A DNA stretch of 64,000 nucleotides from a virus. Made by a program: the position numbers and the translations under genes. Below are positions 1,986 through 34,189 of the stretch, in pieces (position 1 is the first letter of the stretch; every line of letters begins with the position of its first letter). Where the stretch lies: IMG/VR virus record IMGVR_UViG_3300025093_000011, positions 1-64,000 of that record, one strand, 5' to 3'. Under the pieces are notes generated by a model that was not told the DNA's origin, made no database searches, and was given only the letters and a program-made list of their open reading frames with translations.

Positions 1986-2007
1986 TGTAAATTAAAACCA
2001 ACACAAT

Positions 2008-9635: not shown

Positions 9636-9697
9636 AGGTTTAAACTATAAACATTTAAACTTTTTTTGTATATTTGCTTAAATCTAAATATACAATT

Positions 9698-9994
9698 ATG
9701 AACAATCCAAACCAACATGAAGATTTATCTCCAGAAGAATTGGAAGATAAAAAAGAAGAGATGTTAGAGTTCTATGAGAATTCTTTAAGATATCTCAAAG
9801 CTCAATTTGAATATGAAAAAGTATTATCTGACTTAGATGAAGTTAGATTTAAGAGAGCTCAGATTCAAATGCAATATGCAATGATGATGGCTCCCCCTGA
9901 AGAGGAAGAGGAATTACCTCAACAAAGTCCTAAACCAAAACCAGCTGCTAAACCAAAATCAGCTAAAAAAAGAGTACTTAAAACAGAAGCATAA
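9698..9994 (+). CDS. Hypothetical coiled-coil protein
   Basis: The start was moved to ATG 9698, downstream of the TATATTTG promoter. Confidence 0.7.
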   Translation: MNNPNQHEDLSPEELEDKKEEMLEFYENSLRYLKAQFEYEKVLSDLDEVRFKRAQIQMQYAMMMAPPEEEEELPQQSPKPKPAAKPKSAKKRVLKTEA

Positions 9995-17305: not shown

Positions 17306-17577
17306 TGGAATTTTTTGATATACTTACACAGTACGGAGTTCTTGGTGTTTGGGTAGTATATGCTATTACTAGAGAAAGGTGGCTGCTTAGAAAGATTGAA
17401 GAAATATCTGCTAGATCAACTAAAGAAAGAGAAGTATGGCATAAAGAACGTGAGCAGTTTATGAATCAGTGTCATATGGAAAGAGAAAACTTTATAAAAG
17501 AGATTGCTTTAGTAAGATCGGAAGAAAGAAATTTTTATATAAAACAACTTGAAAAATTAACCAAAAAAATTAGTTAG
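17305..17577 (+). CDS. Small membrane protein (holin-like N-terminal TM plus coiled coil)
   Basis: ILTQYGVLGVWVVYAI followed by a charged coiled coil. Confidence 0.55.
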   Translation: MEFFDILTQYGVLGVWVVYAITRERWLLRKIEEISARSTKEREVWHKEREQFMNQCHMERENFIKEIALVRSEERNFYIKQLEKLTKKIS

Positions 17578-17619
17578 CTATATAATGTAAAATTTTAATT
17601 AATTTTTTTTTAATAATTT

Positions 17620-17636
17620 TAAATCTTTAAGATTTA
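17620..17636. promoter_or_regulatory. Palindromic operator-like site TAAATCTT-T-AAGATTTA
   Basis: Perfect 8-1-8 inverted repeat abutting a late promoter. Related sites at 50692, 58196 and 9641. Confidence 0.55.
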
Positions 17637-17637
17637 T

Positions 17638-17649
17638 TTTAGTATATTA
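17638..17649 (+). promoter_or_regulatory. Putative late promoter TTTAGTATATTA (scaffold-MCP operon)
   Basis: Repeated motif. Confidence 0.7.
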
Positions 17650-17674
17650 AAGTATAACCAACAAAAAACAAAAA

Positions 17675-18958
17675 ATGGCAGAAGAAAAGAATGAGGAAAC
17701 TCAAGTGCAAGATTCTACAACGGTAGAACAAGTAGATGTAAATATTGATGAGATTTTTTCAAATTTAGGAGCAGATAATATAATGGTTCCTGAAGAAGAA
17801 GAAAAGCCTGCAGGAAATGTTCTAAAGGCAGAAGAAGAATTTGATACTACGTTCATTGACAAGACTGAAGAAAAAGTTGAAACTGTAACAGAAGAACCTG
17901 TAGCAACGGAATCAACTCCAGAACAAGATAAAGCTTTAGTAGATGAAGCTCTTTCTGAACTGGATGATATGATTTCTGATGCTGAAGAAACAGAGTCTAA
18001 ACCTGGAAGACGTAAAACTGATAAAAGTGGTTTAGCTGAATTAGCATCTAAAATGATAGAGGAAGGTACTCTATTTGGTTTTGATGATGATAAAGCTTTA
18101 GAAGATTATACTACTAAAGATTTTAGAGAACTGTTTGAAGCTAACTTTCAAGAAAGAGAAGCTAAGATTAGACAAGATACTCCTAAAGAGTTTTTTAATT
18201 CTCTTCCTGAAGAACTTCAAGTAGCTGCTAAATATGTAGCTGATGGTGGTACAGATCTAAAAGGATTATTTAGAACTCTTTCACATGTTGAAGAGGTAAT
18301 GGATTTAGATCCTAGTAATGAACAACATCAAGCAGAAATTGCAAGACAATATTTAACTGCTACTAGATTCGGAACTCCTGAAGAAATTCAAGAGGAAATT
18401 GAAACTTGGTATGATAGTGATAGATTAGAAAAGAAAGCTAATCAGTTTAAACCTAAGTTAGATAGAATGCAAGAAAAAATTGTTCAGCAAAAGTTAGCAG
18501 AACAAGAGCAGTTAAAAGCACAACAGGAAGATGCAGCAAAAGCTTATATGGATAATGTATATAATACTTTAGCTGATGGTAAATTAGGAGATGTAAAGCT
18601 AGATAGAAAAACTCAAAATGCTTTATATTCAGGATTAGTTCAACCTAACTATCCTTCTATTTCAGGAAAGCCTACAAACTTATTAGGACATCTTCTTGAA
18701 AAGTATCAATTTGTAGAACCAAGGCATGATTTAATTGCAGAAGCATTATGGTTACTTTCAGATCCAGATGGATATAAAAGTAAACTTAAAAATCAAGGTT
18801 CTCAAGATGCAGTTAAAAAAACAGTAAGACAACTAAAAACTGCTCAGTCTAATAAAATATCTTCTTCTGGTGTAACACCGAAAGCTGATACAAACAGAAG
18901 AAAGCAACCAACAAAAAGAACAGTACAAAGAAAGAACACTATGTTCAAAAGATTTTAA
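17675..18958 (+). CDS. Capsid scaffolding-like protein
   Basis: Acidic N half, helical, basic tail. Lies between portal and MCP as in crAss-like phages. Confidence 0.7.
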   Translation: MAEEKNEETQVQDSTTVEQVDVNIDEIFSNLGADNIMVPEEEEKPAGNVLKAEEEFDTTFIDKTEEKVETVTEEPVATESTPEQDKALVDEALSELDDMISDAEETESKPGRRKTDKSGLAELASKMIEEGTLFGFDDDKALEDYTTKDFRELFEANFQEREAKIRQDTPKEFFNSLPEELQVAAKYVADGGTDLKGLFRTLSHVEEVMDLDPSNEQHQAEIARQYLTATRFGTPEEIQEEIETWYDSDRLEKKANQFKPKLDRMQEKIVQQKLAEQEQLKAQQEDAAKAYMDNVYNTLADGKLGDVKLDRKTQNALYSGLVQPNYPSISGKPTNLLGHLLEKYQFVEPRHDLIAEALWLLSDPDGYKSKLKNQGSQDAVKKTVRQLKTAQSNKISSSGVTPKADTNRRKQPTKRTVQRKNTMFKRF

Positions 18959-18987
18959 ATTAGTAAACAATAAAAACAAAATAAAAA

Positions 18988-20601: not shown

Positions 20602-20620
20602 TCTAACAATAGATTCTTAT

Positions 20621-20655
20621 AAAAGGGGGAGGGAAAGTCCTCTCCCTTTTTTTTT
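20621..20655 (+). terminator. Rho-independent terminator after MCP
   Basis: GGGGGAGGG-AAAG-TCCTCTCCC-TTTTTTTTT. Confidence 0.9.
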
Positions 20656-20681
20656 AATAACCAACAAAAAAATCAACAAAA

Positions 20682-21701
20682 ATGAAAAGTAATAATTTTA
20701 CAATGGTGCAAACACCAACCTCTTCTACATCCTCAAAGATTTCTATCAGACCTTATTTTGATAGCAGAACTGAAAATATGGGATTAGAAAATTATGGATT
20801 AAGTTTATTTGATGGAGTTACACATCAAGAACAATTAGCTTGTTTAGAAATCAATGGTATTGTTAGATACCTTACTGGTTTAAATGAATTTGCTCCAGAA
20901 TTAAAAACTCTACCATCTGAACTTAAAGATGCTAGAATTAAAAATATTAGAACAGCAGTTTCTGACTTAGAAAAAGAATTAGCTGCAAATGTCATTGATC
21001 CAGAAGACAAAGACTTTTGGAACAAAGTAAAATTACTAAAACCTGATAATCAAGAGTTTTGGAATAAAATTGAATTAACCGTAGGGAATCAGCCTATACA
21101 TTTAAATGTAAATGATCCTTATGACAGAATAAAATTATTTGCAATAGAAGCTGGAGGTTTTTCTCTTGTAGCAAAGAGTTATGATGATGCAAGATCAAGA
21201 CCAACTCCACCTAAGTTCTATTTAGATAAAGAAGAGCAAACAGTGTCTACAAGAACTGAGTATAAGAAAATGCGAAATAAAGCACTTTCAGAATTGCAAA
21301 AGTTATTTGATAAGAATAGTACTAAGTTATTTTATGTTGCTAAAGTTGTAGATGTAAATAGTCCACAATATAAAAAGTCAACTCCTTTAGATGTTATCTA
21401 TGAAAATATGGATAACCATATAAATGGAGAAGGTATGGAAAGTAACTTAGAAAGAGCTGTAAACACTTTCTTAAAGACAGTAGAGATGGATATGGAAACA
21501 TTAAAAATTAAATCAATTGTTAAGGATTCTGTATTCTTCAAACATGTTGTAACTAAAAGTGATGGTCATATATATCATGCTAAGAAAAATGCTATACTAG
21601 GAAGAAATGTTTCTGATGTAGTAGAGTTCTTAAAGAACCCTCTTAACGAAGATATACTAGATGACTTAACTAAGAAGTGTGAAAAATATTGGAAAAGTTA
21701 A
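20682..21701 (+). CDS. Conserved crAss-like protein downstream of MCP
   Basis: 339 aa with FW motifs and C-terminal LG.....V.FLKNPLNE. The call rests on synteny. Confidence 0.6.
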   Translation: MKSNNFTMVQTPTSSTSSKISIRPYFDSRTENMGLENYGLSLFDGVTHQEQLACLEINGIVRYLTGLNEFAPELKTLPSELKDARIKNIRTAVSDLEKELAANVIDPEDKDFWNKVKLLKPDNQEFWNKIELTVGNQPIHLNVNDPYDRIKLFAIEAGGFSLVAKSYDDARSRPTPPKFYLDKEEQTVSTRTEYKKMRNKALSELQKLFDKNSTKLFYVAKVVDVNSPQYKKSTPLDVIYENMDNHINGEGMESNLERAVNTFLKTVEMDMETLKIKSIVKDSVFFKHVVTKSDGHIYHAKKNAILGRNVSDVVEFLKNPLNEDILDDLTKKCEKYWKS

Positions 21702-21719
21702 ATTTAAAAAATAAAAGTT

Positions 21720-21941
21720 ATGCCAGGATATAAAACAATGTATGGAAAAGGTGGATCATCATTAGATCCAATACCTGCAGGTAATAAAGGATTACCTAAA
21801 TTATCTAAAACTGTAAGAAACAAAATGGGTTTCATGGGAAAAGGTGGATCTGCATTAGAGTCATCTATGAACAAAATGACTTATAAGCATGGAGGATCAT
21901 GCGGTAGAAGAATCCTTGGTAGAAACTTAAGAAAAAAATAG
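21720..21941 (+). CDS. Small basic protein with repeated xxGG motifs
   Basis: YGKGG, MGKGG and YKHGG. Confidence 0.65.
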   Translation: MPGYKTMYGKGGSSLDPIPAGNKGLPKLSKTVRNKMGFMGKGGSALESSMNKMTYKHGGSCGRRILGRNLRKK

Positions 21942-21946
21942 AAATT

Positions 21947-22135
21947 ATGCCTACAGTAAATGGAAAAAAATACCCTTATACAAGGGAAGGAATCAAAGCT
22001 GCCAGAGCTGCAGCTAATGATTCATATGGACCAGATGCAGTATTAAGAACTTTTTGTCCTAAATGCATGCCTAAGTATTCTAATAATCCTAGAACTATTC
22101 AGGGTAGACAATTAAGAAAAGGAGGAACTGTATAA
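21947..22135 (+). CDS. Small basic protein
   Basis: MPTVNGKKYPYT..G.KAA, a CPKC motif, and C-terminal LRKGGTV. Confidence 0.65.
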   Translation: MPTVNGKKYPYTREGIKAARAAANDSYGPDAVLRTFCPKCMPKYSNNPRTIQGRQLRKGGTV

Positions 22136-22377
22136 TGAAAATGATTAAACTTACTAATACTATGACTAAAAAAGAAATGCAAGAGTGGGAAGACCGCAGT
22201 GCAATGAATACTTTATTAGAAGCTAAAAGAATCAAAGAGAATAGTGCACTTATGAAAAGAGTGACAAATTTGGCTAAAAAAGAAGCTACTAAATTTCAAG
22301 CATTGGCTAGTGGTGGATCAGTTAAACCTAAGAAAACTCTATCTAGACCTAAAAAGAAAACTCTTAAGAGAAGATAA
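22135..22377 (+). CDS. Small basic protein
   Basis: TAATG-coupled to the previous gene. LASGG followed by a Lys/Arg tail. Confidence 0.65.
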   Translation: MKMIKLTNTMTKKEMQEWEDRSAMNTLLEAKRIKENSALMKRVTNLAKKEATKFQALASGGSVKPKKTLSRPKKKTLKRR

Positions 22378-22378
22378 G

Positions 22379-22579
22379 ATGCCTAATAAAGATGTTCAAA
22401 ATATGAAGGTTTTAGAATTCTTCAGAAAAGGAGGATCTAAAAAGAAAAAGTCTAAGGCTAAAAAGTCTAAGAAAGATGCTTGTTATCATAAAGCTAAAGC
22501 TAAGTATGCTGTATTTCCATCTGCTTATGCAAGTGGATACATTGCTAAATGTAGAAAACGTAGAGGTAAGATAAAGTAA
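22379..22579 (+). CDS. Small basic protein (DACYHK...PSAYASG)
   Basis: Start moved to ATG 22379. Lys-rich. Confidence 0.65.
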   Translation: MPNKDVQNMKVLEFFRKGGSKKKKSKAKKSKKDACYHKAKAKYAVFPSAYASGYIAKCRKRRGKIK

Positions 22580-22845
22580 TGGCAGTAAGAAAAACAGCTA
22601 AGGGTCTTGCACTGAAAAGGTGGTTCAAAGAAAAATGGAAGGACGAGAAAGGAAATCCTTGTGGTTCTTCTAAGAATAAGAAAACTAAGAAGTGTAGACC
22701 TACTAAAAAGATTTCTAAAAAGACTCCCAGAACATGGGGGTCTTTATCTAAATCTCAAAAAGCTAAAGCTGTTGCTGAAAAGAAAAGAACTGGTATGGGT
22801 AGAAGAACTAGTTCAATTAAAAAAAGAAAAACTAAAAAGAAATAG
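22579..22845 (+). CDS. Small basic protein (LKRWFKEKW...CRP)
   Basis: Extremely K/R-rich and TAATG-coupled. Confidence 0.7.
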   Translation: MAVRKTAKGLALKRWFKEKWKDEKGNPCGSSKNKKTKKCRPTKKISKKTPRTWGSLSKSQKAKAVAEKKRTGMGRRTSSIKKRKTKKK

Positions 22846-22846
22846 T

Positions 22847-23047
22847 ATGGCAAGATATGCAAAGCCAATGGCAAAAACTGCAGTTCCTAAATTAAAAAAA
22901 GGTGGTGCTAAGAAGAAGTTTAAAGCTCATATGATGTACAATCCTAAAACAGGTAAAGGTACTATGGCTAAAAAAATGGCTGATCATTTACGTATGAAAA
23001 AACTTGGTTATACACATACTAAACCTAAAGCTAAAAAGAAAGGATAA
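22847..23047 (+). CDS. Small basic protein (FKAHMMY...HLRMKKLGYTH)
   Basis: Start moved to ATG 22847. Confidence 0.65.
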   Translation: MARYAKPMAKTAVPKLKKGGAKKKFKAHMMYNPKTGKGTMAKKMADHLRMKKLGYTHTKPKAKKKG

Positions 23048-23319
23048 TGGCAACTAAGAAAAGTAGTAAGAAGAAAGGAGCTATGAAAGGCTGTACAATC
23101 AAAAATGGTTGTAAGTCTAAGAAAGGTGGTCTTACTGCTAAAGGGCGTAAAATGATTAATAGAAAAACTGGCTCTAACTTAAAAGCACCTCAACCAGGTG
23201 GTGGAGCTAGAAAGAAAAGTTATTGTGCAAGATCTCTTGGTCAGATGAAAAAGTTTCCTAAAGCTGCTAAAGATCCAAACAGCCGTTTGAGAAAAGCTAG
23301 AAGAAGATGGAAATGCTAA
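23047..23319 (+). CDS. Small basic protein (KSYCARS...DPNSRL...RWKC)
   Basis: K/R-rich and TAATG-coupled. Confidence 0.7.
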   Translation: MATKKSSKKKGAMKGCTIKNGCKSKKGGLTAKGRKMINRKTGSNLKAPQPGGGARKKSYCARSLGQMKKFPKAAKDPNSRLRKARRRWKC

Positions 23320-23324
23320 TAATT

Positions 23325-23336
23325 TTTTGTATATTA
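23325..23336 (+). promoter_or_regulatory. Putative late promoter TTTTGTATATTA
   Basis: Repeated motif. Confidence 0.65.
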
Positions 23337-23341
23337 TATAC

Positions 23342-23407
23342 ATGAATGAAACCTTTAAAGAACCAGAAGAAGAAAATGATCAAATTTTTATATACTGGGA
23401 ATATTAA
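23342..23407 (+). CDS. Possible 21-aa acidic micro-peptide
   Basis: MNETFKEPEEENDQIFIYWEY fills the gap between the promoter and the next ATG. Confidence 0.35.
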   Translation: MNETFKEPEEENDQIFIYWEY

Positions 23408-23409
23408 AA

Positions 23410-23622
23410 ATGGCACAGAAGAAGAAGTTAAATATCAAGAAGGCAATTAAAAAGCCAGGTTCTCTTACAGCTACTGCTAAAAGGCAAGGTGGTTATGATA
23501 AAAAGAATAAGAGAATTAAAAAGTCTTGGCTTAGAGAAAAAGCTAAGGGTAAAGGTAAAACTGCTCAACGTGCTAGATTTGCAATTACGTTAGGTAAACT
23601 AAGAAAGAAAAAGAAATCATGA
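23410..23622 (+). CDS. Small basic protein (IKKAIKKPGSL...RARFAITL)
   Basis: K/R-rich. Confidence 0.7.
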   Translation: MAQKKKLNIKKAIKKPGSLTATAKRQGGYDKKNKRIKKSWLREKAKGKGKTAQRARFAITLGKLRKKKKS

Positions 23623-24317
23623 CAAACTCTGCAATAGTCATAAAATTAAAACAGAGGCTTAATAAGCTTGATAGTCAAGACTATGATAATATAGAATGTT
23701 GGCAAGCTGTTGAAGCTTTTAATAAGGCTCAAGTAGAATGGTCTAGAAGACAGTTACATGGTATTAATGTAGTTCAAGAAGGTGATGAACAATCTACCAG
23801 AAGAAAAGATGACCTTCAAGTTTTACTATCTACTGATACTATTCCCATGGTTGATAAAAAGATATATGTTAAAGGAAGTGTTCCTTCTGATTATCTTCAA
23901 TGGAAAAGAGTTGATGTAAATGCATGTAAAGAATGTTGTGAAGATAGAAGAATGACAGTATACTTAGCAGAAGAAGGTAACTTAAATCAATTACTTAGAG
24001 ATGAATCTAAGAAACCTTCATTTGAATGGGCTGAGACTTTTGCTACATTAATAGGAAATAGTGTACATGTTTATACTAATAATGAGTTTGATGTTCAAGA
24101 TGCAGAACTTACTTATTATAGACAACCAAGGTACATTCAAATTCAAGGATGTGTAGATCCTTATACAGGTATAGCATCTACTACAAATGTTGAATCTGAA
24201 TTTAAAGATGATATTATAGAATTAATTATTGATGAGGCTGTTAGTATAATTGCTGGAGATATTGAATCAAACAATCAATTCTCAAGAGGTCAACAAGGGG
24301 CTGAAAGAAATAATTAA
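23619..24317 (+). CDS. Tail ring / head-tail adaptor protein
   Basis: LNKLDSQ...FNKAQ...LTYYRQP...IIDEAV, a crAss ring-protein-like pattern. Confidence 0.7.
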   Translation: MTNSAIVIKLKQRLNKLDSQDYDNIECWQAVEAFNKAQVEWSRRQLHGINVVQEGDEQSTRRKDDLQVLLSTDTIPMVDKKIYVKGSVPSDYLQWKRVDVNACKECCEDRRMTVYLAEEGNLNQLLRDESKKPSFEWAETFATLIGNSVHVYTNNEFDVQDAELTYYRQPRYIQIQGCVDPYTGIASTTNVESEFKDDIIELIIDEAVSIIAGDIESNNQFSRGQQGAERNN

Positions 24318-24341
24318 TACATGTTTGATATTTAAAAACTT

Positions 24342-24353
24342 TTTTGTATATTA
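24342..24353 (+). promoter_or_regulatory. Putative late promoter TTTTGTATATTA
   Basis: Repeated motif. Confidence 0.7.
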
Positions 24354-24414
24354 TAGTATATTTATTTATTAATTAAAAAAGTCCTCTGAATAAAATAGGA
24401 GGCAATTAAAAAAA

Positions 24415-25803
24415 ATGGCTTATTTTAACAATGCGTTCAAAAAGACAATAGTACTTTCTGACTATGTTGCTGTAGGTGCTTTAACAACTACTGCAGCTTT
24501 AACATCTGGTCAAATGGGAATGTTTAATGGACATAACTGGCAAGCAGCTACATTAGATGAGTGCTGTCAATTTATTCTTGCAACCGGTTCTCCTTATCAA
24601 AGTGATAAGATTGGTTCTCATCACGGTGGATACCAAGCAAGTATTAAAACTAAAGGAATTAATCCTAGATATGTAACTAAAATGTGGACACAGAATGCTC
24701 ACGTTGCTCAAAATGCAATTTTACATATTGGTAAAACTCCATATACACAAACTGCTGGAACAGCTGATTGCTGCCCAACTTTCTTATGTGGAGAAAACTA
24801 CCACTTAAGAATTGACATTAAAGGTTCTCCAGCATTAAGAATGTTGAACCACCAAGCATATGGTGAAGTTACTGCTTACACAGGATGTTGTGCAGATGCT
24901 ACTGTAGCTCCTGTTGCTGTTAACCCAGCAGTTGTGATGCTAGGATGGCAAGAGCAAATCTTGGATAACCCAATTCTTATGGGTGGATTAAATAATCAAG
25001 AAGATCCATATTCTGGAGCATTCATTATTCCTGTAGTAACTGTTTCTGCTGCTGGTGCAGCTGGTGTTATTGGTGATGGTGCAACTTTAGTATATCCTAC
25101 TGGAACTCCTGCTGCTGTACTTACCGCTGGTGTTACTGCAACTAATACTCACTTAGGTTTAGTTGGTCCAGCTACAGTTATTGCAACTACTGCTGATGCT
25201 TATACTCCTGCTGCTTACACTGATGAGTGTGCTGGTTTAACATTAGTTGGTGCTTTTGTAGAAACAACTTTTGGAGATTGTACTTTCCAACCTTCAGATT
25301 TCTATGGAGTTGAACCTTTAAGATTATATGCTTCTGAAGTAGACTTAAATGGTGATCCATGTGAATTTACAGGTATATGTATAGCTGATGAGTGTAAAGG
25401 TTATCAAGCAGAAGGTCTTGGTGAGACTGTTGCTAGAGACTTTATCTTATCTGAGTCTTACAGACAAATTCCATTTGCAACTGACTTAAGAATCCGTGAG
25501 ATTACTCAAGGAAATGATATGTTAGGAGCTGGAGCTGGTCAAGTAGACAGAACAGCACTATATGATCACTTATATATCTTGCATACTGTTCCAAGATTTA
25601 ACAATCCATCTGGTACATTTGATAATGATCAATATCTAATTGACATTGTTAGTTTATCAACAGTTGCTGGTAAAGCTGAAAGAGATGCTCTTTTAACTGA
25701 CTTGCAAGCTAAGATTGGAACTTGTGGACATTTAGATTGTATGGCTGAGATGACACCTCTAGGTGCATGTCCTGCTAACCCATCTATTATTGTTACTTCA
25801 TAA
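24415..25803 (+). CDS. Abundant virion structural protein (auxiliary capsid-type)
   Basis: Has its own promoter and terminator, high-expression codon bias, and Ala/Thr/Cys-rich beta composition. Confidence 0.55.
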   Translation: MAYFNNAFKKTIVLSDYVAVGALTTTAALTSGQMGMFNGHNWQAATLDECCQFILATGSPYQSDKIGSHHGGYQASIKTKGINPRYVTKMWTQNAHVAQNAILHIGKTPYTQTAGTADCCPTFLCGENYHLRIDIKGSPALRMLNHQAYGEVTAYTGCCADATVAPVAVNPAVVMLGWQEQILDNPILMGGLNNQEDPYSGAFIIPVVTVSAAGAAGVIGDGATLVYPTGTPAAVLTAGVTATNTHLGLVGPATVIATTADAYTPAAYTDECAGLTLVGAFVETTFGDCTFQPSDFYGVEPLRLYASEVDLNGDPCEFTGICIADECKGYQAEGLGETVARDFILSESYRQIPFATDLRIREITQGNDMLGAGAGQVDRTALYDHLYILHTVPRFNNPSGTFDNDQYLIDIVSLSTVAGKAERDALLTDLQAKIGTCGHLDCMAEMTPLGACPANPSIIVTS

Positions 25804-25825
25804 GAATAAACAATTATTTACTCAT

Positions 25826-25869
25826 AAAAGGGAGAGTGAGACATAAGTTTCTCCTCTCCCTTTTTTTTT
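25826..25869 (+). terminator. Rho-independent terminator
   Basis: GGGAGAG.GAGA...TCTCCTCTCCC-TTTTTTTTT. Confidence 0.85.
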
Positions 25870-25880
25870 ATTTTAAGATT

Positions 25881-26423
25881 ATGGCAAATCATGTACTAAG
25901 TTTAGAGGTACCTACTGTAGGTAACCCTTGTGTTTTAAAAATATTTGACACAAGTGTTTATTCTGCACAAGTAGCTGTATTTCAACCAAAATTATATATA
26001 ACTGTTCCAGGTTATAAAAATGCTTGTGAAGTAGCTTTTGTTCCTCAATCTTCTCCAACTTTAACTGGATGTGATTTGAACATACAAACAACTAATTGTG
26101 GCACTTCATATGTAAACTTACCTGATGGAATTTATTGTATTAAATATGTAGTAGACCCTAATCAAGTGGTCTATGTAGAATATAATCATTTGAGGATAAC
26201 ACAAGCACTGAACCTATATCAAAAGATTTTATGTGATATAGATGTAGCAGATTGTGAACCCCCAGCTAAGATCAAAGAAAAGCTTGAAGATCTTAGACTA
26301 ATTAAGATGTATCTAGAAAATGCAAAAGCAAAAGTAGAAACATGTCATGAGTCTCAAGAAGGAATGACTCTTTACAATTATGCTTTAAAGCTTTTAAAAG
26401 CTCTAGATTGTAGAAATTGTTAA
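25881..26423 (+). CDS. Tail hub/collar-type structural protein
   Basis: Start moved to ATG 25881. Contains an LPDGIY.IKY motif. Confidence 0.55.
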   Translation: MANHVLSLEVPTVGNPCVLKIFDTSVYSAQVAVFQPKLYITVPGYKNACEVAFVPQSSPTLTGCDLNIQTTNCGTSYVNLPDGIYCIKYVVDPNQVVYVEYNHLRITQALNLYQKILCDIDVADCEPPAKIKEKLEDLRLIKMYLENAKAKVETCHESQEGMTLYNYALKLLKALDCRNC

Positions 26424-26444
26424 ACCAACAAAAACCAACAAATT

Positions 26445-26603
26445 ATGGCAGCAGGATCAAAATGTAAAAATTGTGGATCTACACTCTCTTGCGGATGTCA
26501 ACAAAGAAGAGCAATTGATGGAGCTCAGACTTGTGCAAACTGTGTAAATGCATATAATAACAAATTGAAACAAGAGAAATTAAAAACTTATACTAAAAAA
26601 TAA
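26445..26603 (+). CDS. Small Cys-rich (zinc-finger-like) protein, 52 aa (not in ORF track)
   Basis: CKNC....SCGC...CANC. TAATG-coupled to the next gene. Confidence 0.7.
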   Translation: MAAGSKCKNCGSTLSCGCQQRRAIDGAQTCANCVNAYNNKLKQEKLKTYTKK

Positions 26604-28777
26604 TGTCTGGAGTTCCTTATTATAAAATAATTGATTGTTGTGATAACAGCAGATTTACTTTCATTAATCTAGTTGATGATGGTTCAGGGATATGGGTAGG
26701 TGATGGTCAATACCAATGGACACTTGCTGATACAACTTTAGCTGTATCTGGATTTTTATTAGAACAAAACAAATGTTATACTATAATATTTCAAGGATCT
26801 GTATTTAATTCTTATGATCCTTTAAATGAAGGAGACTTTCTAGCAAAAGAAGGTTGTACTGACCCAGTAGGTGTACCTTGTAAAGATTGTGGAACAACCC
26901 CAGGAGATTATTATTTAAAATTTGTAAACTGTTGTAACCCTGCAGATATTGTATTCTTTAGAGGTGTAGGTATAAATGGAACAATAAGTATTCCAGGAAA
27001 TTCATCTGGTGGAGGTATAACAGGAGTAACTCAAGTTAACATAAATAACTATTTAGGAGTAAACTTATATAACGGTAACAGTATAGATGGTTTATCTAGA
27101 GGAGTTTGTTATACAGGTACATTAGGAAGTGTAACTGATCCAGCTTCTGAAGTAGATTTAGCTACATACAATAGTTTACCATATCCTCCAATAGATGCAG
27201 ATTTTACATTTGTAGATGGAGATGATTGTGAAAAAAAGGATGCAGATGGAAATCCAATATGTCCATCTTGTTCAAAATACCCATGTTATATTCTTACAGA
27301 ATGTTCAGGTATTGAACTTTTAGTTACAGGAAATTATGCAGCATATAATAATACATATGTTGCTTTAGTAGGTTATCCAGGTCAAGTATGGTATGTACAA
27401 GAAGTAGAAGAAGGACCTTGTGATAATGCTAGCTCATCTATAGTAATAGATACGGGAACTCCAGTTGAACCATGTCCTTGCAATTGCTATGAAGTTACTA
27501 ACTATTCTGGAGCAATTAATTATATTGATTGTGATGGTAATACTCAAGTAACTTACTCACCTGCAAAGTTCTGTGCACAAGCTAGACCTCAAATACATGG
27601 TGTAGAAGGTGTTGATTACATATTGAATAATAGAGGACTCTGTATAGAAAAGCTATGCCCTGAGTTATGTTTTGTATTAACAAACTGTTCACCTGATTTA
27701 TATCCATCTCAACAAGCTATTATATACTCTACTTTACAAAGTTTATATGAATATGCTTCTAATGGTGAAGTTGTAACAATTGAAGGTTATGCTGGATGTT
27801 GGACAGTTACTATAGCTGAGGAAGCTTCACTTTGTGATGAATGTACTACAGATATAATAGTTAAAACAACTTTTGCAGACTGTGATGCTTGTGAGGGAAT
27901 AACAGCATACAAACTTCAAAACTGTGAAAAAGCATATGATGTAATTTACACTATGCAAGATTTATCTGCATATGTAGGTAAAGTCATAAAAGATGATTGC
28001 GGATGCTGGGTAGTAGAAGAGATTAATTATCAACCTCCAAGTACAACTACAATAACACCGGTTGCAGAGTTTGAAGGATGTACAGCATGTTTATCAACAT
28101 ACTATTCTTTAACAGATTGTAGTAATCCAGATAAAGTAATTTATACTACTGAAGAATTATCAGGATATACAGATGCAGTAATTAAAATTAAAGATTGTGA
28201 TTTATGTTTTACTGTAGCTAGGTTTGAACCAAGTTTAGAAACTCCTATCAAGGACATACAAAGTGTTGAAGTTGATACTAGATATGAAGATTGTGTAACA
28301 TGTTTAGATCCTACACCAAGATGTTCTAGAGTATTTAATAATACTACAGAAGATCCTAAAGAATTTGCATATATAGATCATGAAGGAAATCCTCAATCAG
28401 TATCAGTAGAATCAGGAAAGTTTTCTTTAAGACTTTGTGTAAAACAATGGACAGTAGATCCAGCAGATACATTCCCATATATCTTTGAATACTTTGGAGA
28501 TTGTAAAGATGGTTTCTGTGTTCAAGTATTTCCAAATAACAGAACAGTAAAACCAGGATATAATACACCAATATGTACAGCTGAAAAGTATGATAAGATT
28601 ACTTGTAAAGCTGCAGATATTGTTTATAAAAAAGTTCTTGAGGCAAGATATGGTATATCTAACTGTTGTCCTGAAGAAGATGAAAAATGGTTAATTAAAA
28701 AAGAATTGATAGAATTGCAAGCATTAACTGACCCATGTTATAAATGTCAAGATGCTTCAGCTTCTTGCAATTGTTAA
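26603..28777 (+). CDS. Cys-rich repeat virion protein (fibre/spike-like)
   Basis: Tandem ~65-aa units of Y.L..C...C(W/F).V...C..C. Confidence 0.6.
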   Translation: MSGVPYYKIIDCCDNSRFTFINLVDDGSGIWVGDGQYQWTLADTTLAVSGFLLEQNKCYTIIFQGSVFNSYDPLNEGDFLAKEGCTDPVGVPCKDCGTTPGDYYLKFVNCCNPADIVFFRGVGINGTISIPGNSSGGGITGVTQVNINNYLGVNLYNGNSIDGLSRGVCYTGTLGSVTDPASEVDLATYNSLPYPPIDADFTFVDGDDCEKKDADGNPICPSCSKYPCYILTECSGIELLVTGNYAAYNNTYVALVGYPGQVWYVQEVEEGPCDNASSSIVIDTGTPVEPCPCNCYEVTNYSGAINYIDCDGNTQVTYSPAKFCAQARPQIHGVEGVDYILNNRGLCIEKLCPELCFVLTNCSPDLYPSQQAIIYSTLQSLYEYASNGEVVTIEGYAGCWTVTIAEEASLCDECTTDIIVKTTFADCDACEGITAYKLQNCEKAYDVIYTMQDLSAYVGKVIKDDCGCWVVEEINYQPPSTTTITPVAEFEGCTACLSTYYSLTDCSNPDKVIYTTEELSGYTDAVIKIKDCDLCFTVARFEPSLETPIKDIQSVEVDTRYEDCVTCLDPTPRCSRVFNNTTEDPKEFAYIDHEGNPQSVSVESGKFSLRLCVKQWTVDPADTFPYIFEYFGDCKDGFCVQVFPNNRTVKPGYNTPICTAEKYDKITCKAADIVYKKVLEARYGISNCCPEEDEKWLIKKELIELQALTDPCYKCQDASASCNC

Positions 28778-28782
28778 TAATA

Positions 28783-28794
28783 ATTTGTATATTA
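28783..28794 (+). promoter_or_regulatory. Putative late promoter ATTTGTATATTA
   Basis: Repeated motif. It supports a start at ATG 28803. Confidence 0.65.
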
Positions 28795-28802
28795 TAATAA
28801 GT

Positions 28803-30431
28803 ATGAAACCTTTAAATTTAGATAATAGCCCCTGTAGTCCAATTTCTTCAAATTGTGTAGTATGGCAAGGACCAGACATTGCTTGCATAAATTTATGTAA
28901 TGGTGATAATGTCTCTGAAGTTGTTAATAAATTAGCAACTGAGCTTTGCACAATTATGGAAACACTTAAGATCAGTAATTATGATCTTACTTGTTTTAAT
29001 TTACAAGCATGTGGACCTGCAGATTTTCAAGCATTGATTCAATTATTAATTAGTAAAATTTGTGAATTAGAGGGTGTTACTCCTGATAATGCAAAAGCTA
29101 CAGAAGATGGATGTCCTGATTGTGTAGTAAGTGTTGCTGAATGTTTTGTTACTGGTACACAAACTACAATGCAATTAACTAACTATGTAACTTTAATAGG
29201 AGAAAGAATTTGTAGTATAATTAATGATATCAGTTTAATAAATACTCAAATTGCTGATATCTTAGTAAGATTAACAGCTATAGAATCAACTCCTGAACCA
29301 ACTTTTACTTTACCAAGATTTACTTTAGGTTGTACAATTGGTGCTTTAACAGGAGATCAATTTATTGATGCAGTTATTCAAGAGTTTGTAAATAATGTAT
29401 GGTGTCCTTTTTATACAGCTACTGGAACAACAGCAGAATTAACTTCTGCAGTAGGTCAAAAATGTATAGGAGATGCAGACACTCAATTAAATACTGGAAC
29501 TCCATTTAGTGCAAATCCTCTATGGGTTCAAAATGCATCATATGGTACAGTAGCAGATGCTATAAATAACTTATGGATTGCTGTTTGTGATGTATTTAAC
29601 TATAATACTTCATCATCAGGTGTAACAGTTGCTGACACAAATACTGTAGATTTAGAAATAACAGCTGGAAATGAATTATCAGCAAAAGTAAAAGATACTG
29701 GTTGGGTTGACTTAGCAGGATTTGAATTTTATTCAGGAACAGCTACTAAACCTCAAGTAAGAAGAGTAGGAAATGTTTTACATTTTAGAGGATATGTTTT
29801 TGTACCACTTGATAATGGTGCAGGAGGTATCCATGGTTTAACTAGCTTTGCTGATTATAATAGTATTGGAACATGTATTCCAGGAACTAGTGGGCCAGGA
29901 GCAGTATCAATTAGTACAGGTGGTGTAATATCATTTAATGCTGGTAGCAGTGTTATTCCTGCTGCAGTTACTGCAAGTCCATTAGATGCTGATTATAGAA
30001 TGCCTTATCCAGCAGTTTTATCAAGACCGATTATAGTTACAGGTTCTGATGGAACTGTTTTAACTGCTGCTTGTAGAATTGGTATAACAAGTGCAGGAGT
30101 TTTATACATTGGATCTTTAAGAGACCAAGAAGAAATTTCAGGTGCTACAGGATTTATTGGTGGATCTCATCTTAGATTTATTACTAGTAATGTAAGATCT
30201 GGAGAGAGTATACCTAATTATATTAATACTGCTACATATATTCATAACTTTCCAGCAGCAGGTGTTAATAACCTAGTTGGAGAAACTGATTTCAGTGGTA
30301 CTGATTATACATGGCCTTTCTCATGTGATGCAGGAGACTCTGGTAACTTAGGAGGATTCTTTGCAACCATAGAAGGACTAACCGCATTTTTAGCTTGTGA
30401 TGCAGATATAGGAGAAGCAAGCTGTTACTAA
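28803..30431 (+). CDS. Tail fibre protein
   Basis: Cys-rich N-terminal anchor, coiled coil, and a DTGWVDL...RRVGNVLHFRG receptor-type C domain. Confidence 0.7.
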   Translation: MKPLNLDNSPCSPISSNCVVWQGPDIACINLCNGDNVSEVVNKLATELCTIMETLKISNYDLTCFNLQACGPADFQALIQLLISKICELEGVTPDNAKATEDGCPDCVVSVAECFVTGTQTTMQLTNYVTLIGERICSIINDISLINTQIADILVRLTAIESTPEPTFTLPRFTLGCTIGALTGDQFIDAVIQEFVNNVWCPFYTATGTTAELTSAVGQKCIGDADTQLNTGTPFSANPLWVQNASYGTVADAINNLWIAVCDVFNYNTSSSGVTVADTNTVDLEITAGNELSAKVKDTGWVDLAGFEFYSGTATKPQVRRVGNVLHFRGYVFVPLDNGAGGIHGLTSFADYNSIGTCIPGTSGPGAVSISTGGVISFNAGSSVIPAAVTASPLDADYRMPYPAVLSRPIIVTGSDGTVLTAACRIGITSAGVLYIGSLRDQEEISGATGFIGGSHLRFITSNVRSGESIPNYINTATYIHNFPAAGVNNLVGETDFSGTDYTWPFSCDAGDSGNLGGFFATIEGLTAFLACDADIGEASCY

Positions 30432-30472
30432 ATAGAAAAATTATATATATATAAATTAAAAATAAAATAAAA

Positions 30473-31735
30473 ATGGCTTGTTCAAATTGTAATAATACCC
30501 AAAATTGTGGATGTTCAAATGGTACTTATACTGTATCAGCAACATGTCCACCTGCTTGTACTGAAGTTTTTAATGCTCAGTGCATTGTCTACACAGGAGT
30601 AGACTTAACTTGTGATGGAGACACTGTAATCTCTAGAAATGATTATTTAGACAGTGTTGTCACAAAACTTGTAAACTATGTATGTAGTAAAGTAGCTCCA
30701 CCCGCTAGTGTAGTTGCTGGTAGTGCATTTATTGATGTAGTACCTACAACAGATCCTGTTACAGATGTAACAACTTATACAGTATCTGTTGATATGGCTG
30801 CAATGGAAATCTGGGTTGCTCCTATTATTACTAATCAAATTCTAGCAAAAGTATTAGCTGGACCTGGAATTGATGTAGCACCTGATGCTGTAGCAGGAAC
30901 AGTAACTGTATCTCATGAAGATACATCTTCTGTAACTGATCTATCTAGTAATAATACAGGTAACTCCTTTATCCAATCTATCAACTTTACTTTTGATACA
31001 TACGGACACGTTACAGGTGCTTCTGCTGTACCAGGTACTGTAACAGGAACAGATAACTTTGGTCAGTTTGATATTACTGATACTGATCCAGGAACATATA
31101 CATGGGATTCTGTAGGTTCTGCAATTGCACTTAATCCATCAGATACATTTACAGTTCTTTCAGGAGAAGGAATTGATGTTGATGTTGATGTAACTGCATT
31201 AGCAATGAGAATTGCATTTACCGGAGTAACAACTGGTGCTGGACTAACTGGTGTTGGTACTGTTGCTGATCCTCTTGTAAACTCATCTCCAAATGTTGTT
31301 CAAGATGTATGGACAAAAATTATTGCTAAAGATGGTACTTCTACTACAGCAGATGATGCTGCAGATGAATTAACTATCACTGGTGGTGCTGCAATTGAAA
31401 CAACAATTGCTGGAGATGTATTAACTATCAATAATGGTGGTGTAACTGAAGCTGTTGCTGGTGATGGTATTTCAGTAAGTGCAGCTGTAGGTTCAGTAAC
31501 AATAACTGCTGATGTACAAAGAGAATTACTTTCAGCTGTTGGCTATACTGCTGGAGATCCTGCACAATCTATCACTCACACTGTTGGTGAGACTTATGTT
31601 CAAGTAAGAGCATTTGATGGTTTAAATGATGTAACAAATGTAGGTGCAGGTGCAATCATAGCTATGGTAAATTCTACAAGTTTTACAATACAACATGCTA
31701 CTAGAAATATAACTGATATATTAGTTATAGGATAA
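30473..31735 (+). CDS. Tail fibre protein
   Basis: N-terminal anchor paralogous to 28803, AG.GI.V fibre repeats and FDTYGHVTG. Confidence 0.7.
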   Translation: MACSNCNNTQNCGCSNGTYTVSATCPPACTEVFNAQCIVYTGVDLTCDGDTVISRNDYLDSVVTKLVNYVCSKVAPPASVVAGSAFIDVVPTTDPVTDVTTYTVSVDMAAMEIWVAPIITNQILAKVLAGPGIDVAPDAVAGTVTVSHEDTSSVTDLSSNNTGNSFIQSINFTFDTYGHVTGASAVPGTVTGTDNFGQFDITDTDPGTYTWDSVGSAIALNPSDTFTVLSGEGIDVDVDVTALAMRIAFTGVTTGAGLTGVGTVADPLVNSSPNVVQDVWTKIIAKDGTSTTADDAADELTITGGAAIETTIAGDVLTINNGGVTEAVAGDGISVSAAVGSVTITADVQRELLSAVGYTAGDPAQSITHTVGETYVQVRAFDGLNDVTNVGAGAIIAMVNSTSFTIQHATRNITDILVIG

Positions 31736-31740
31736 TAAAA

Positions 31741-31812
31741 CTGTCGCAGGTTTGTTGGTTTCTGTGGCTGACAACAGAAAAGGCTCTACACAAGTGGGGC
31801 TTTTTCTTTTTT
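31741..31812 (+). ncRNA. Candidate 3'-UTR small RNA: hairpin with UUUGUUGGUUU loop followed by a terminator
   Basis: Stem GTCGCAG/CTGTGGC with G-U pairs. The loop is the reverse complement of the AAACCAACAAA leader boxes. Confidence 0.5.
31776..31812 (+). terminator. Rho-independent terminator
   Basis: GCTCTAC-ACAA-GTGGGGC-TTTTTCTTTTTT. Confidence 0.8.
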
Positions 31813-31847
31813 TACTATATTTGTTATACTTGTTAATCTCATTAATT

Positions 31848-31859
31848 TTTAGTATATTA
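31848..31859 (+). promoter_or_regulatory. Putative late promoter TTTAGTATATTA
   Basis: Repeated motif. A host-type TATATTTG lies just upstream at 31816. Confidence 0.7.
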
Positions 31860-31869
31860 TTTATATAGT

Positions 31870-32454
31870 ATGGAAGCATTTAAAACACCAAACTTAAAAG
31901 CTCCGAGATTTAGAGCAGATACTTATGAAGTTCTAAATAAAGAGTTCTTTGATAGATTTAGAAAAAAACATCCTCAATATAAAAAAATAGAGGATAAAGA
32001 GTTAAGAAAAATAATTAAAACTTTTAACAAAGGTATTTTTCAAAATGTAATTGATAACAGAAATGGAGTTCAATTACCTGAATCAATTGGCTGGTTGTTC
32101 ATAGGTACATGTCAACCAAGTAAAAAGAAAAATATTGATTTTGCTAAATCTAGAAAGTATGGTGTAAAAGTTGCCAATAAGAACTGGGACAGTGATGGCA
32201 AGCTTGCAAAAATATTCTTTACTAGCCGTGCATTAAAACATAAAATGAAGAACAGAGAGTTTTGGAGTTTTAGTGCATCAAGAGAATTTAAAAGATCAGT
32301 TGCTAAATCATATCCTGAAAATTGGAATATGTATGTAGAGGTTGATCCTAGACAGCAATTGAAAGCTGCATATAAAAGCAAGGAGTCTGGAATACAACTT
32401 AATAAGAAGTATGAAAAGGAAGCCTTAAAAAACTATAATGAATTTGACTTATGA
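31870..32454 (+). CDS. crAss-type IHF/HU-like protein
   Basis: Basic, with GVQLPESIGWLFI. It precedes the ring-muzzle block as in crAss-like phages. Confidence 0.55.
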   Translation: MEAFKTPNLKAPRFRADTYEVLNKEFFDRFRKKHPQYKKIEDKELRKIIKTFNKGIFQNVIDNRNGVQLPESIGWLFIGTCQPSKKKNIDFAKSRKYGVKVANKNWDSDGKLAKIFFTSRALKHKMKNREFWSFSASREFKRSVAKSYPENWNMYVEVDPRQQLKAAYKSKESGIQLNKKYEKEALKNYNEFDL

Positions 32455-33113
32455 CTACAGTAGGGGAATCAATATCTAGAGTAAGAAATACATTAAAAGC
32501 TGTTAAAGAGGATCCCTTTTTAACTGATAGAACTATATACTCATCAATAATAAAGTACGGTCAATCTCTTATGAAGAGAGAAGATAATCAACTTAGATTG
32601 ATGAAAATTAGTAATATATTCAAAGCAATGCCTTATGTTGAACTTATAGAAGTTGATAAAGTTGATGCTGGATGCTATGGAGTTTATTCAGGTTGTTACT
32701 TTAAAAGAACAAAAGAAAAACTTCCTGAACTTCTTACAGGTATACAAGGACCTATTATACGTACAGTGTCTTCAGTAGATGGTTCTATAGAATTATTTAG
32801 AACTGATCCGGGAACATTTTCTTCAATGACAAAGAGTACAACTTTTAAATATAATAAGAAGCAGTACTTCTGGTTTTTAGATGGCTATTTATACTTTCCT
32901 AATCTAGCATGGGATGCAGTTAAGATTGAAGCAATATTTGAAAATGATGTAGAAACATGTGATTCAGATAAATGTCTTATAAAACAAGAACAAGCATTAA
33001 ATATTCCTGATTATTTATTTTCAGAAATAGAACAGTATGTAGTAAAAGAATTAACTATGTCTATACAAGTTCCTACAGATGGAGCTGATGATAGCCAAAA
33101 TACCCTTAGATAA
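32451..33113 (+). CDS. Tail ring (tubular) protein
   Basis: Y.WFLDGYLYFPN...V.IEAIFE, plus synteny. Confidence 0.7.
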   Translation: MTTVGESISRVRNTLKAVKEDPFLTDRTIYSSIIKYGQSLMKREDNQLRLMKISNIFKAMPYVELIEVDKVDAGCYGVYSGCYFKRTKEKLPELLTGIQGPIIRTVSSVDGSIELFRTDPGTFSSMTKSTTFKYNKKQYFWFLDGYLYFPNLAWDAVKIEAIFENDVETCDSDKCLIKQEQALNIPDYLFSEIEQYVVKELTMSIQVPTDGADDSQNTLR

Positions 33114-34189
33114 TGGATTTTAATTATACATTAAGATATAGAACCTTTGATCAACTTCTAGAAGATGTAACAATTGATTTAAACACATTTGCTCTAGAAA
33201 ATATGATAGAGCCTCAGCAGCTAATTAAGCTTGCTAAAAAAATAAACTATGACTTAGGATTAAGAATTAATCAACAGAAGGAAGTTATTCTTGATGTTTG
33301 TCATGGTAAAGTAAAACTACCTGATGATTTTTATACATTTAACTTTGCATACATATGTGGAGATTTTAAAACTTCAGTTGGTTATGATGGATATGCTAGT
33401 GGCACTAACATTCAAGAAGTACCTTATAATGAAGTTCCTGGAAATGTAGATCAATGTGCACCTGCTACAGTTAATTGTAATACTTGTAATGCAGATCCTT
33501 GTAATAAAACTGCAGCATGTACTTCTGCTGTAAGCAGTCCAGCATCAACACCTTGTTGTGATGATAAAGGTAATCAAGGTACATGTTTAGTACCTAATCC
33601 TCAACAACCTTATGGAGATACTTGCATTAAACCAAGAGTTTTTCTTAATTGTAAAAATGAAGCTTATGAATTAATACAAGTAATTAATCCTTCAGAAACT
33701 AGAGTTTTTACAGAACTTTTACCATTAAGAATGAAACCTAGTCAAAATATTGATTGTGGTTGTCCAAATCTTTATTATAATACTATAAATGAAGGTTGGA
33801 TTAAACATGGCTTTTTACACACTTCTTTTAAAGATGGTAAAGTGTATTTAAATTATCAAGGTCAACTTGAAGATGATGATGGAAACTTGTTAGTTCCAGA
33901 TCATGACTTAATTAATGAATATTATGAGTATGCATTAAAATCTAGAATACTTGAGAATCTTTATTTGAATGGAGAAGATGTTGCACAAAGAATGCAACTA
34001 ATAGAACAAAGATTAAAAGCTGCTAGAAACAATGCACTTAGTGTAGTTAATACACCAAATTTTGCAGAAATAAAACAAATATGGGCAGCTAATAGAAAAG
34101 CAATGTATTGGAAATATTATGATATGTTTAAATCTCATTCTCCAACAAGTGGATTTTATGCTGCTCAAAACAGAAGTAGAGTTGTATAG
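33113..34189 (+). CDS. Tail ring (tubular) protein with Cys-rich insertion
   Basis: KVKLPDDF...SFKDGKVYLNY...D.DG..LVPD, plus synteny before the muzzle gene. Confidence 0.7.
   Translation: MDFNYTLRYRTFDQLLEDVTIDLNTFALENMIEPQQLIKLAKKINYDLGLRINQQKEVILDVCHGKVKLPDDFYTFNFAYICGDFKTSVGYDGYASGTNIQEVPYNEVPGNVDQCAPATVNCNTCNADPCNKTAACTSAVSSPASTPCCDDKGNQGTCLVPNPQQPYGDTCIKPRVFLNCKNEAYELIQVINPSETRVFTELLPLRMKPSQNIDCGCPNLYYNTINEGWIKHGFLHTSFKDGKVYLNYQGQLEDDDGNLLVPDHDLINEYYEYALKSRILENLYLNGEDVAQRMQLIEQRLKAARNNALSVVNTPNFAEIKQIWAANRKAMYWKYYDMFKSHSPTSGFYAAQNRSRVV

Follow-up and report, generated by a model that had tools for sequence, protein, structure and literature searches.

In a crAss-like phage, a hairpin behind a tail-fibre-like gene has a loop that is perfectly complementary, over 8-11 nt, to a short box (AACCAACA) at the translation starts of the scaffold gene, the gene that follows the MCP gene (the post-MCP gene), and a few others. 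A sequence-only reading of this DNA had proposed that the loop is antisense to such a box, and the match is as it described. The explanation that we prefer, with only a little more belief than doubt, is a base-pairing RNA, derived from the 3' UTR, that would mask the scaffold and post-MCP starts, and some other starts more loosely. The window (the whole 64,000-nt stretch of DNA that we analyzed) comprises the initial 64 kb of an IMG/VR record of 113,198 bp, which is 98% complete. Its layout is crAss-like, in that the + strand encodes virion proteins and giant proteins while the − strand carries the replication genes, and its MCP matches Crass_capsid from Pfam (PF23898).

Hairpin 1 is in the 3' UTR of an ORF of 420 amino acids (30473..31735, + strand), which has a weak hit to the tail-fibre connector family PHROG 677. 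The hairpin starts eight bases past the end of this gene at 31735. Its arms, GTCGCAG (31743..31749) and CTGTGGC (31762..31768), enclose the anti-box loop GTTTGTTGGTTT (31750..31761; GUUUGUUGGUUU as RNA), and within the loop, the core TTGTTGGT (31752-31759) corresponds to unchanging columns in the alignment of relatives. After a 7-nt A/C-rich spacer, TGACAAC (31769..31775), which is partly kept as AAC(AA) in relatives, there is a second hairpin with a 14-pair stem (31776-31807), an ACAA loop, and a T-run to 31813. All of these elements are on the + strand. The second hairpin (31776..31813) has the form of an intrinsic terminator, namely a G+C-rich hairpin and a U-tract; hairpin 1 (31743-31768) has no U-tract, so it is not a terminator. 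Presumably, the 3' end of the RNA is in the region of 31813. Promoter-like elements for the next operon follow at 31816..31859 (+ strand): TATATTTG, and TTGTTA-17-TATATT with TAGTATATTA. They are conserved in all relatives and appear to mark the end of the hairpin's transcription unit.

The 106-nt stretch that includes the hairpin and the terminator has a folding energy of −29.5 kcal/mol (z = −4.19 versus 200 shuffles), and the loop of hairpin 1 is unpaired with a probability above 0.9 in the ensemble. Two pairs in the stem are G.U (31744.31767 and 31746.31765). These become C.A mismatches on the − strand, so hairpin 1 is a + strand RNA, as the sequence-only reading had argued from the same pairs, and we rejected a minus-strand hairpin. 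(The positions that it gave for the hairpin, the G.U pairs, the terminator, and the copies of AACCAACA are all correct.) We also rejected an H-type pseudoknot between UUGUUG in the loop and the downstream CAACAA, because the 3' partner directly abuts the stem, which leaves no linker to cross the 7-bp helix. The suggested comparison to Rfam did not identify a family: in the whole 64-kb window, no model reached its gathering score, including the covariance model for the c4 family of P1/P7 (C4 in Rfam), and at E ≤ 10, the region 31600-31950 had just sub-threshold chance hits. A search for tRNAs and tmRNA found none.

Hairpin 1 is present in all 80 of the loci that we reached via the downstream 194-aa gene (55-74% identity), as well as in all 21 of the new loci that we inspected from a second search. 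Across 50 distinct sequences from relatives, stem 1 is 99.1% paired, while slid controls are only 35-58% paired. The pairing is maintained despite exchanges at several positions: one pair is UG, UA, or CG (23, 19, and 7 sequences), another is UA or UG (40 and 10), and a third is GU or AU (27 and 23). The covariation score is 0.298, as compared to 0.236 for shuffles, and 0 of 500 shuffles reach this score. RNAalifold, unaided, predicts both hairpins. In the same 50 sequences, the loop letters TTGTTGG..TT are invariant, and the loop core UUGUUGGU is unchanged in every relative that we inspected. In divergent subclades, the stem has been rebuilt as AGUUGAAG/CUUACAACU or as AGUUGCAG/CUUCAACU around the same core. 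The terminator stem co-varies too, with double changes at three pairs. Three genomes (L262, L274, and L299) have an unrelated terminator sequence, and they still have hairpin 1 and the tandem boxes. These results support hairpin 1 as a real and conserved + strand RNA structure with an invariant loop. In other words, the covariation of the stem and the conservation of the loop, which were both proposed as checks from the sequence alone, turned out as expected for a conserved RNA.

The gene upstream of the hairpin varies among the relatives, and conservation of the sequence begins exactly at the stem, so a promoter specific to the hairpin is not conserved. (The block of hairpin, terminator, and promoter resembles the fixed boundary of an exchangeable fibre cassette, as seen by comparing 30473-31742 to L089-L168.)

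We then considered the box. The window contains 9 copies of AACCAACA, versus 2.52 expected, a count that none of 100 shuffles attains. Of the 9, seven are in the sense orientation (+ strand), at 1996, 9710, 17656, 18906, 20659, 26423, and 26433. Relative to called starts, 5 of these 7 sense copies fall in −35..+3 (binomial p = 1.2e-6), and 6 of the 7 fall in −35..+28 (p = 3e-7). The leaders are C-poor (9% C), and among the 56 A5C3 words, only AACCAACA and its 1-2-nt shifts occur in leaders. Because words of the same composition are otherwise absent from the leaders, the signal from the box is not due to an A/C-rich leader background. Thus the enrichment of the box at starts, which the sequence-only reading had left to be checked, is genuine, with p of about 1e-6.

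The relatives show the same pattern. In 80 MCP-centred loci (1.22 Mb), the coding strand has 313 copies of AACCAACA and the opposite strand has 9, and the ATG is mostly 10-13 nt past the start of the box. Near ATGs, the exact word has 174 copies, versus at most 42 for any variant with one mismatch, and variants of the box that would be compatible with wobble pairing have no clear excess in these relatives. (The variant AACCCACA appeared to be enriched near ATGs, but we rejected it, as it belongs to conserved coding sequence in the portal gene and precedes an in-frame Met.) Since the box is found after a terminator, after promoters, and inside codons, it is an element of the start region that operates at the RNA level and is not part of a promoter. 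Overall, the data support the box as a real motif that is specific to start regions. Shine-Dalgarno-like words are present in 5 of 107 leaders; this genome lacks Shine-Dalgarno sites, which agrees with the earlier suggestion of initiation that does not depend on them. By inspection, AACCAACA has no complementarity to the anti-Shine-Dalgarno sequence CCUCC.

To what extent could the match between the loop and the box be a coincidence? In the phage's own genome, six start regions have a predicted energy of −10.5 kcal/mol or lower with the loop; in the background, 0.9% are at or below −11. TGTTGGTT has four sense copies in the 113-kb genome, and we discarded the other copies (at 63730, and at 93020 and 96520 of the genome) as chance matches in coding sequence. 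We roughly estimate that the probability of a copy of TGTTGGTT falling in the hairpin loop by chance is about 1e-2 or less. It seems unlikely that the most constrained loop would match the most constrained start-region word by chance. We did not find letter-for-letter co-variation of the loop and the box: the flanks of the box do not follow those of the loop, and two variants of the loop (GGUAUUUU and GGUGUUU) are without matching changes in the box flanks. Within the clade, both the loop and the box are invariant, so no compensatory change is visible there. At the level of clades, there is a match between the loop extension GGUUUUAA and the leader UUAAAACC, but we take it as no more than suggestive.

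Two genes, scaffold and post-MCP, would be the core targets. Upstream of scaffold (17675-18958), the leader has the box at 17656..17663 (+ strand), and the box is in 68 of 69 orthologous start regions; the duplex of the loop with this leader is predicted at −11.7 kcal/mol. The leader of the post-MCP gene (20682-21701) has the box along with a degenerate copy, AATCAACAAA (20659..20680, + strand), and the box is in 53 of 56 orthologues, often in tandem. So, within the clade that has boxes, the core target boxes are conserved along with the hairpin, which was another of the proposed checks.

Conservation is looser for the other candidate targets. For the 52-aa Cys-rich gene (26445-26603), which has tandem boxes in its leader (26423..26440, + strand), the exact box is found in 54 of 81 orthologues; the leaders that lack it keep AAACCAA and have changes at positions 7-8. 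In the gene at 9698-9994, the box is within codons 5-7 (9710..9717, + strand). The box is in 20 of its 34 orthologues, mostly at +6 from the ATG, within codons 3-5. The gene at 2008-2301 has a box in its leader (1996..2003, + strand) and is at most an occasional target: the box is found only in close relatives (of 5 relatives, one has an exact copy and one has a degenerate copy). This gene had been labelled groES, but it has no match to Cpn10 (PF00166 in Pfam) at E ≤ 0.01, and the whole genome has no match at E ≤ 10, so the label is unsupported. (Its 97-aa protein starts with MKFKLRGNRVLLDKP and is GroES-like by eye; it matches no Pfam, PHROG, or Cpn10 profile.)

The copy at 18906..18913 (+ strand) had been described as about 70 nt before the MCP start. 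It is within the 3' end of the scaffold coding sequence, 82 nt before the MCP start and outside of the start region, and it encodes a conserved K-P-T stretch, so it is probably not a target site. None of 59 MCP start regions contain the box, and in total it is absent from the start regions of more than 20 orthologous groups, including MCP, portal, fibres, and the downstream gene. The proposed set of box-bearing starts is borne out for the scaffold gene, the post-MCP gene, the Cys-rich micro-protein, and gene 9698-9994, but not for the MCP, and for gene 2008-2301 it extends just to close relatives. As judged from these orthologues, the conserved regulon would be the scaffold and post-MCP genes plus two to three looser members. 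Outside of the window, a gene in the replication arm (85035-86180, − strand) begins with ATGCCAACAAAAA (86150-86180 of the genome), which has 8 nt that are complementary to the loop (−11.1 kcal/mol). This gene could be a further target.

A sister clade, whose MCPs are 72-77% identical to the window's and which has full synteny, complicates this picture. We examined the hairpin in five genomes of this clade, and a pattern search found it in all five, behind a fibre gene and 1.3 kb further upstream of the 194-aa gene. The stem is wholly different (outer AGCG/CGCU, inner GUGGAG/CUCUAC), while the loop, of 17-19 nt, retains UUUGUUGGUUUU and is followed by a terminator. However, AACCAACA is absent from the scaffold and post-MCP starts. 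The leaders are AAAACCAAA for scaffold and UUAAAACCUUUU for post-MCP, and their matches are limited to UUGGUUUU and GGUUUUAA of the loop, or 8 nt. The AAACCAA core persists in the scaffold leaders without full complementarity. Even so, the best loop-matching groups in the sister clade are scaffold (mean of −9.8 kcal/mol) and post-MCP (−9.3 to −10.7), as compared to a background of −6.55 (sd 1.95). The hairpin and the boxes had been expected to be conserved together, which is the case in the window's clade and not in the sister clade. This result is new, and it tempers the notion of a constant pairing of hairpin and box. The sister clade has the loop but not the exact boxes, so the loop is older and more constant than its targets. 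This is what we would expect from the seed of a multi-target sRNA, and it also leaves room for another, unseen partner: the loop is constrained by more than these boxes, or else as a multi-target seed.

Two other features of the sister clade are worth describing. In all five sister genomes (L418-L422, L478-L482), the hairpin-terminator and the 194-aa gene are separated by an additional conserved gene of about 1.2 kb, whose product ends in ...GNICELTYSPD. Also, in this clade (L383-L413; for example, L389:9930-9960 and L389:11680-11705), the post-MCP leader, AAAACCTTTTAAA(ATG), and the final codons of scaffold, TTTAAAAGGTTTTAA, are reverse complements of each other. These codons encode K-R-F-stop and always use the rare AGG for Arg, while the window's clade has AGA or CGT. 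The 13 nt of complementarity between AAAACCTTTTAAA and TTTAAAAGGTTTTAA flank the MCP cistron on both sides and could represent another anti-leader pairing, distinct from the first.

At a much greater distance, the cultured Leptolyngbya phage Lbo-JY46, whose MCP has 29% identity, carries TTTGTTGGTT ahead of a terminator at the syntenic junction. The inverted repeat that flanks TTTGTTGGTT consists only of A-U pairs and does not form in the minimum-energy fold, and the start regions of Lbo-JY46 have no enriched complementarity to the loop. A profile search with a distant MCP for intermediate clades returned only the same clade.

How might the hairpin work? We propose that 31743-31813 is the 3' end of the tail-fibre message and that, whether by release or as a remnant, it becomes a stable RNA of about 70 nt, which would comprise hairpin 1, the short A/C spacer, and the terminator hairpin. 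The open loop of 10-12 nt, with the core UUGUUGGU, would act as a seed and pair with (A)AACCAACA(AA), so that the paired box would be either 2-5 nt ahead of the start codon or within the initial codons. As main targets, we predict scaffold and post-MCP; the Cys-rich micro-protein gene and the genes at 9698 and 2008 would be looser ones. As there are no Shine-Dalgarno sites, a duplex of 8-11 bp at −13..−3 would cover the region where the ribosome lands, and we would expect repression. The effect might be a delayed negative feedback on head-assembly proteins, once the distal part of the late virion block has been transcribed. The discrete RNA, the pairing, and the direction of the effect are all inferred. 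Synthesis of the RNA along with its own targets would be unusual for a repressor. None of the sequencing runs listed for the phage contains it as RNA, and when we compared contigs from two metatranscriptome runs, one possible RNA run, and one DNA run to 15000-34000, there was no usable coverage of the hairpin; such contigs do not show RNA ends and do not bear on expression.

We can also imagine a more ambitious scenario, which we regard as doubtful. The hairpin would be the master seed of a translation code that replaces Shine-Dalgarno control in a host without such sites. The box would be a positive tag that loads ribosomes onto head-assembly genes, and the anti-box RNA would be a molecular timer that switches those genes off, as it would not be made until transcription had arrived at the far end of the virion block. 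The same seed might hit start regions of the host as well, given that the loop is older than the phage's boxes.

Alternatively, the hairpin and the box could be two independent elements whose complementarity has no function. The box would be an autonomous element for translation or mRNA stability, such as a CA-rich enhancer without structure, or an operator to which an RNA-binding protein similar to RegA of T4 binds, in a few strongly expressed virion genes, and hairpin 1 would be a separate structure that binds a protein or protects the 3' end. CA-rich sequence on either side of the AUG enhances translation in E. coli, and the box is likewise found on both sides of the ATG. This explanation would also account for the sister clade, which has the hairpin's loop and not the exact boxes, and whose scaffold leaders keep AAACCAA without being fully complementary, and for the variants in the flanks of the loop that are not compensated. 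But it requires 8-11 nt of complementarity between the most constrained loop and start-region word to arise by chance (about 1e-2 or less, as estimated above); an exact A5C3 word is used, instead of CA-richness in general; and the same two genes are still the best matches to the loop in the sister clade. We consider independent elements to be unlikely. Another explanation is that the loop's primary partner is a host molecule, which could be an mRNA start region or rRNA segment with AAACCAACAAA, or a protein, and that the phage's boxes exploit this partner or evolved secondarily. The conservation of the loop is deeper than that of the boxes (it extends to the sister clade, at 72-77% MCP identity, and possibly to Lbo-JY46, at 29%), and the set of phage genes with boxes is fluid, in line with this explanation. 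Yet the seeds of multi-target sRNAs are normally more conserved than single targets, so the deep conservation of the loop does not require a host partner. Furthermore, the 18-nt pattern of the hairpin had only 27 hits in 185,579 species genomes, all by chance and none with a hairpin, and the box does not complement the anti-Shine-Dalgarno CCUCC. A host partner strikes us as quite unlikely.

If the late message is long and polycistronic, then the hairpin in its 3' UTR might fold back onto the box-bearing starts of the same molecule, so that no separate small RNA need exist. The hairpin's lack of a conserved promoter fits with this, as does the location of every target upstream and on the same strand. 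However, the targets are 5 to 30 kb upstream; terminator-like hairpins intervene, for example after the MCP gene and before the gene at 25881; and there are separate promoters before the genes at 2008 and 9698 and the scaffold gene, so most of the targets are probably on other transcripts. We consider pairing in cis to be very unlikely. Finally, the conserved element might act as DNA, either as a recombination boundary for the exchange of tail-fibre genes or as a site for a protein that binds double-stranded DNA. Although the gene before the hairpin varies and the sequence is conserved from the hairpin onward, homogenization would have kept the stem as well, and the stem varies with its pairing kept, via G.U intermediates that pair on the + strand only. 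The strand bias of the box (313 versus 9) and its fixed spacing to the ATG also point away from DNA. We disfavor this explanation and consider it extremely improbable. Masking of starts by a 3'-UTR-derived RNA is the explanation that we prefer.

The host had been suggested to be Flavobacterium, which is unsupported: the phage is found in marine and sponge metagenomes and has no close relative in culture. Among 50,697 phage records, none matched the DNA or the 194-aa protein, and the best hit for the MCP is 29% identical. The sequence TAnnTTTG, which is a Bacteroidota-type −7 element, occurs at 1978-1985, 9669-9676, and 31816-31823, or 29-30 nt before the genes at 2008 and 9698 and 54 nt before the gene at 31870. 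It also precedes many genes of Lbo-JY46 (L366/L370), which is recorded as a cyanobacterial phage; the true host of Lbo-JY46 may deserve a second look.

Another motif, T[AT]GTATATTA, is just upstream of many genes: at 1786, 3471, 17640, 23327, 24344, 28785, 31850, and 50726 of the window (+ strand), and at 105651, 97409, and 83213 of the genome (− strand). Some copies are so near the ATG that the messages would be nearly leaderless. By analogy, this is probably the type of middle/late promoter for the host's RNA polymerase that was described for the crAss-like phage phi14:2. Genes of the middle and late classes in phi14:2 are read by the host RNA polymerase from conserved tripartite promoters, according to the parts of that study that we consulted (10.1101/2020.03.07.982082), and in the window, similarly, a TAGTATATTA-type motif recurs ahead of several virion genes, one copy being just past the hairpin's terminator. 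The same parts of that study report highly transcribed intergenic regions elsewhere in phi14:2; they do not mention such a hairpin or describe a leader box (10.1101/2020.03.07.982082). In the literature on crAss-like phages that mentions sRNAs, we found no description of such an RNA.

The finding is purely computational so far. If the pairing is real, then a very large and abundant group of uncultivated crAss-like phages, from marine and freshwater environments, controls head assembly post-transcriptionally with a single 8-nt seed, and does so in hosts that do not use Shine-Dalgarno sites. This would give a simple and testable model for how start regions are recognized and masked, and a compact, portable pair of repressor and tag for engineering.

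Most of the regulatory RNAs known to be encoded by phages come from temperate coliphages, along with a few phages of Pseudomonas and Vibrio. Among bacterial RNAs, the icaR mRNA of Staphylococcus aureus has an interaction between its 5' and 3' UTRs. As in our proposal, a motif in the 3' UTR is complementary to the region where the ribosome lands, and masks it. In icaR, this takes place within one short monocistronic mRNA and via an anti-Shine-Dalgarno motif, while the phage has no Shine-Dalgarno sites, and its hairpin is 5-30 kb from its putative targets, with terminators and promoters in between. The base-pairing sRNAs that enterobacteria derive from 3' UTRs, of the CpxQ, SroC, DapZ, and MicL type, are similar to the phage element in several ways. 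The phage element is at the end of a coding message, with which it shares an intrinsic terminator. It lacks a conserved promoter, its short conserved seed of 7-11 nt is single-stranded, and it has several putative targets at or near start codons. On the other hand, the phage's seed is in the loop of a hairpin, while theirs is at the processed 5' end, and the putative phage RNA is encoded by a lytic-type phage and would be aimed at the phage's own virion genes. To our knowledge, the likely host phylum does not have Hfq.

The c4 antisense RNA of phages P1 and P7 (immI) has loops that pair with short repeated boxes overlapping the ribosome binding site, which blocks translation. c4 acts on one neighbouring operon (icd/ant), is cut from the same transcript, and maintains lysogeny, whereas the targets of the phage hairpin would be head-assembly genes that are scattered over 30 kb, and the two are not similar by sequence or by covariance model. 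Despite these differences, the arrangement that we predict is like that of c4: a small RNA, encoded by the phage, whose loop is directed against short repeated boxes at start sites.
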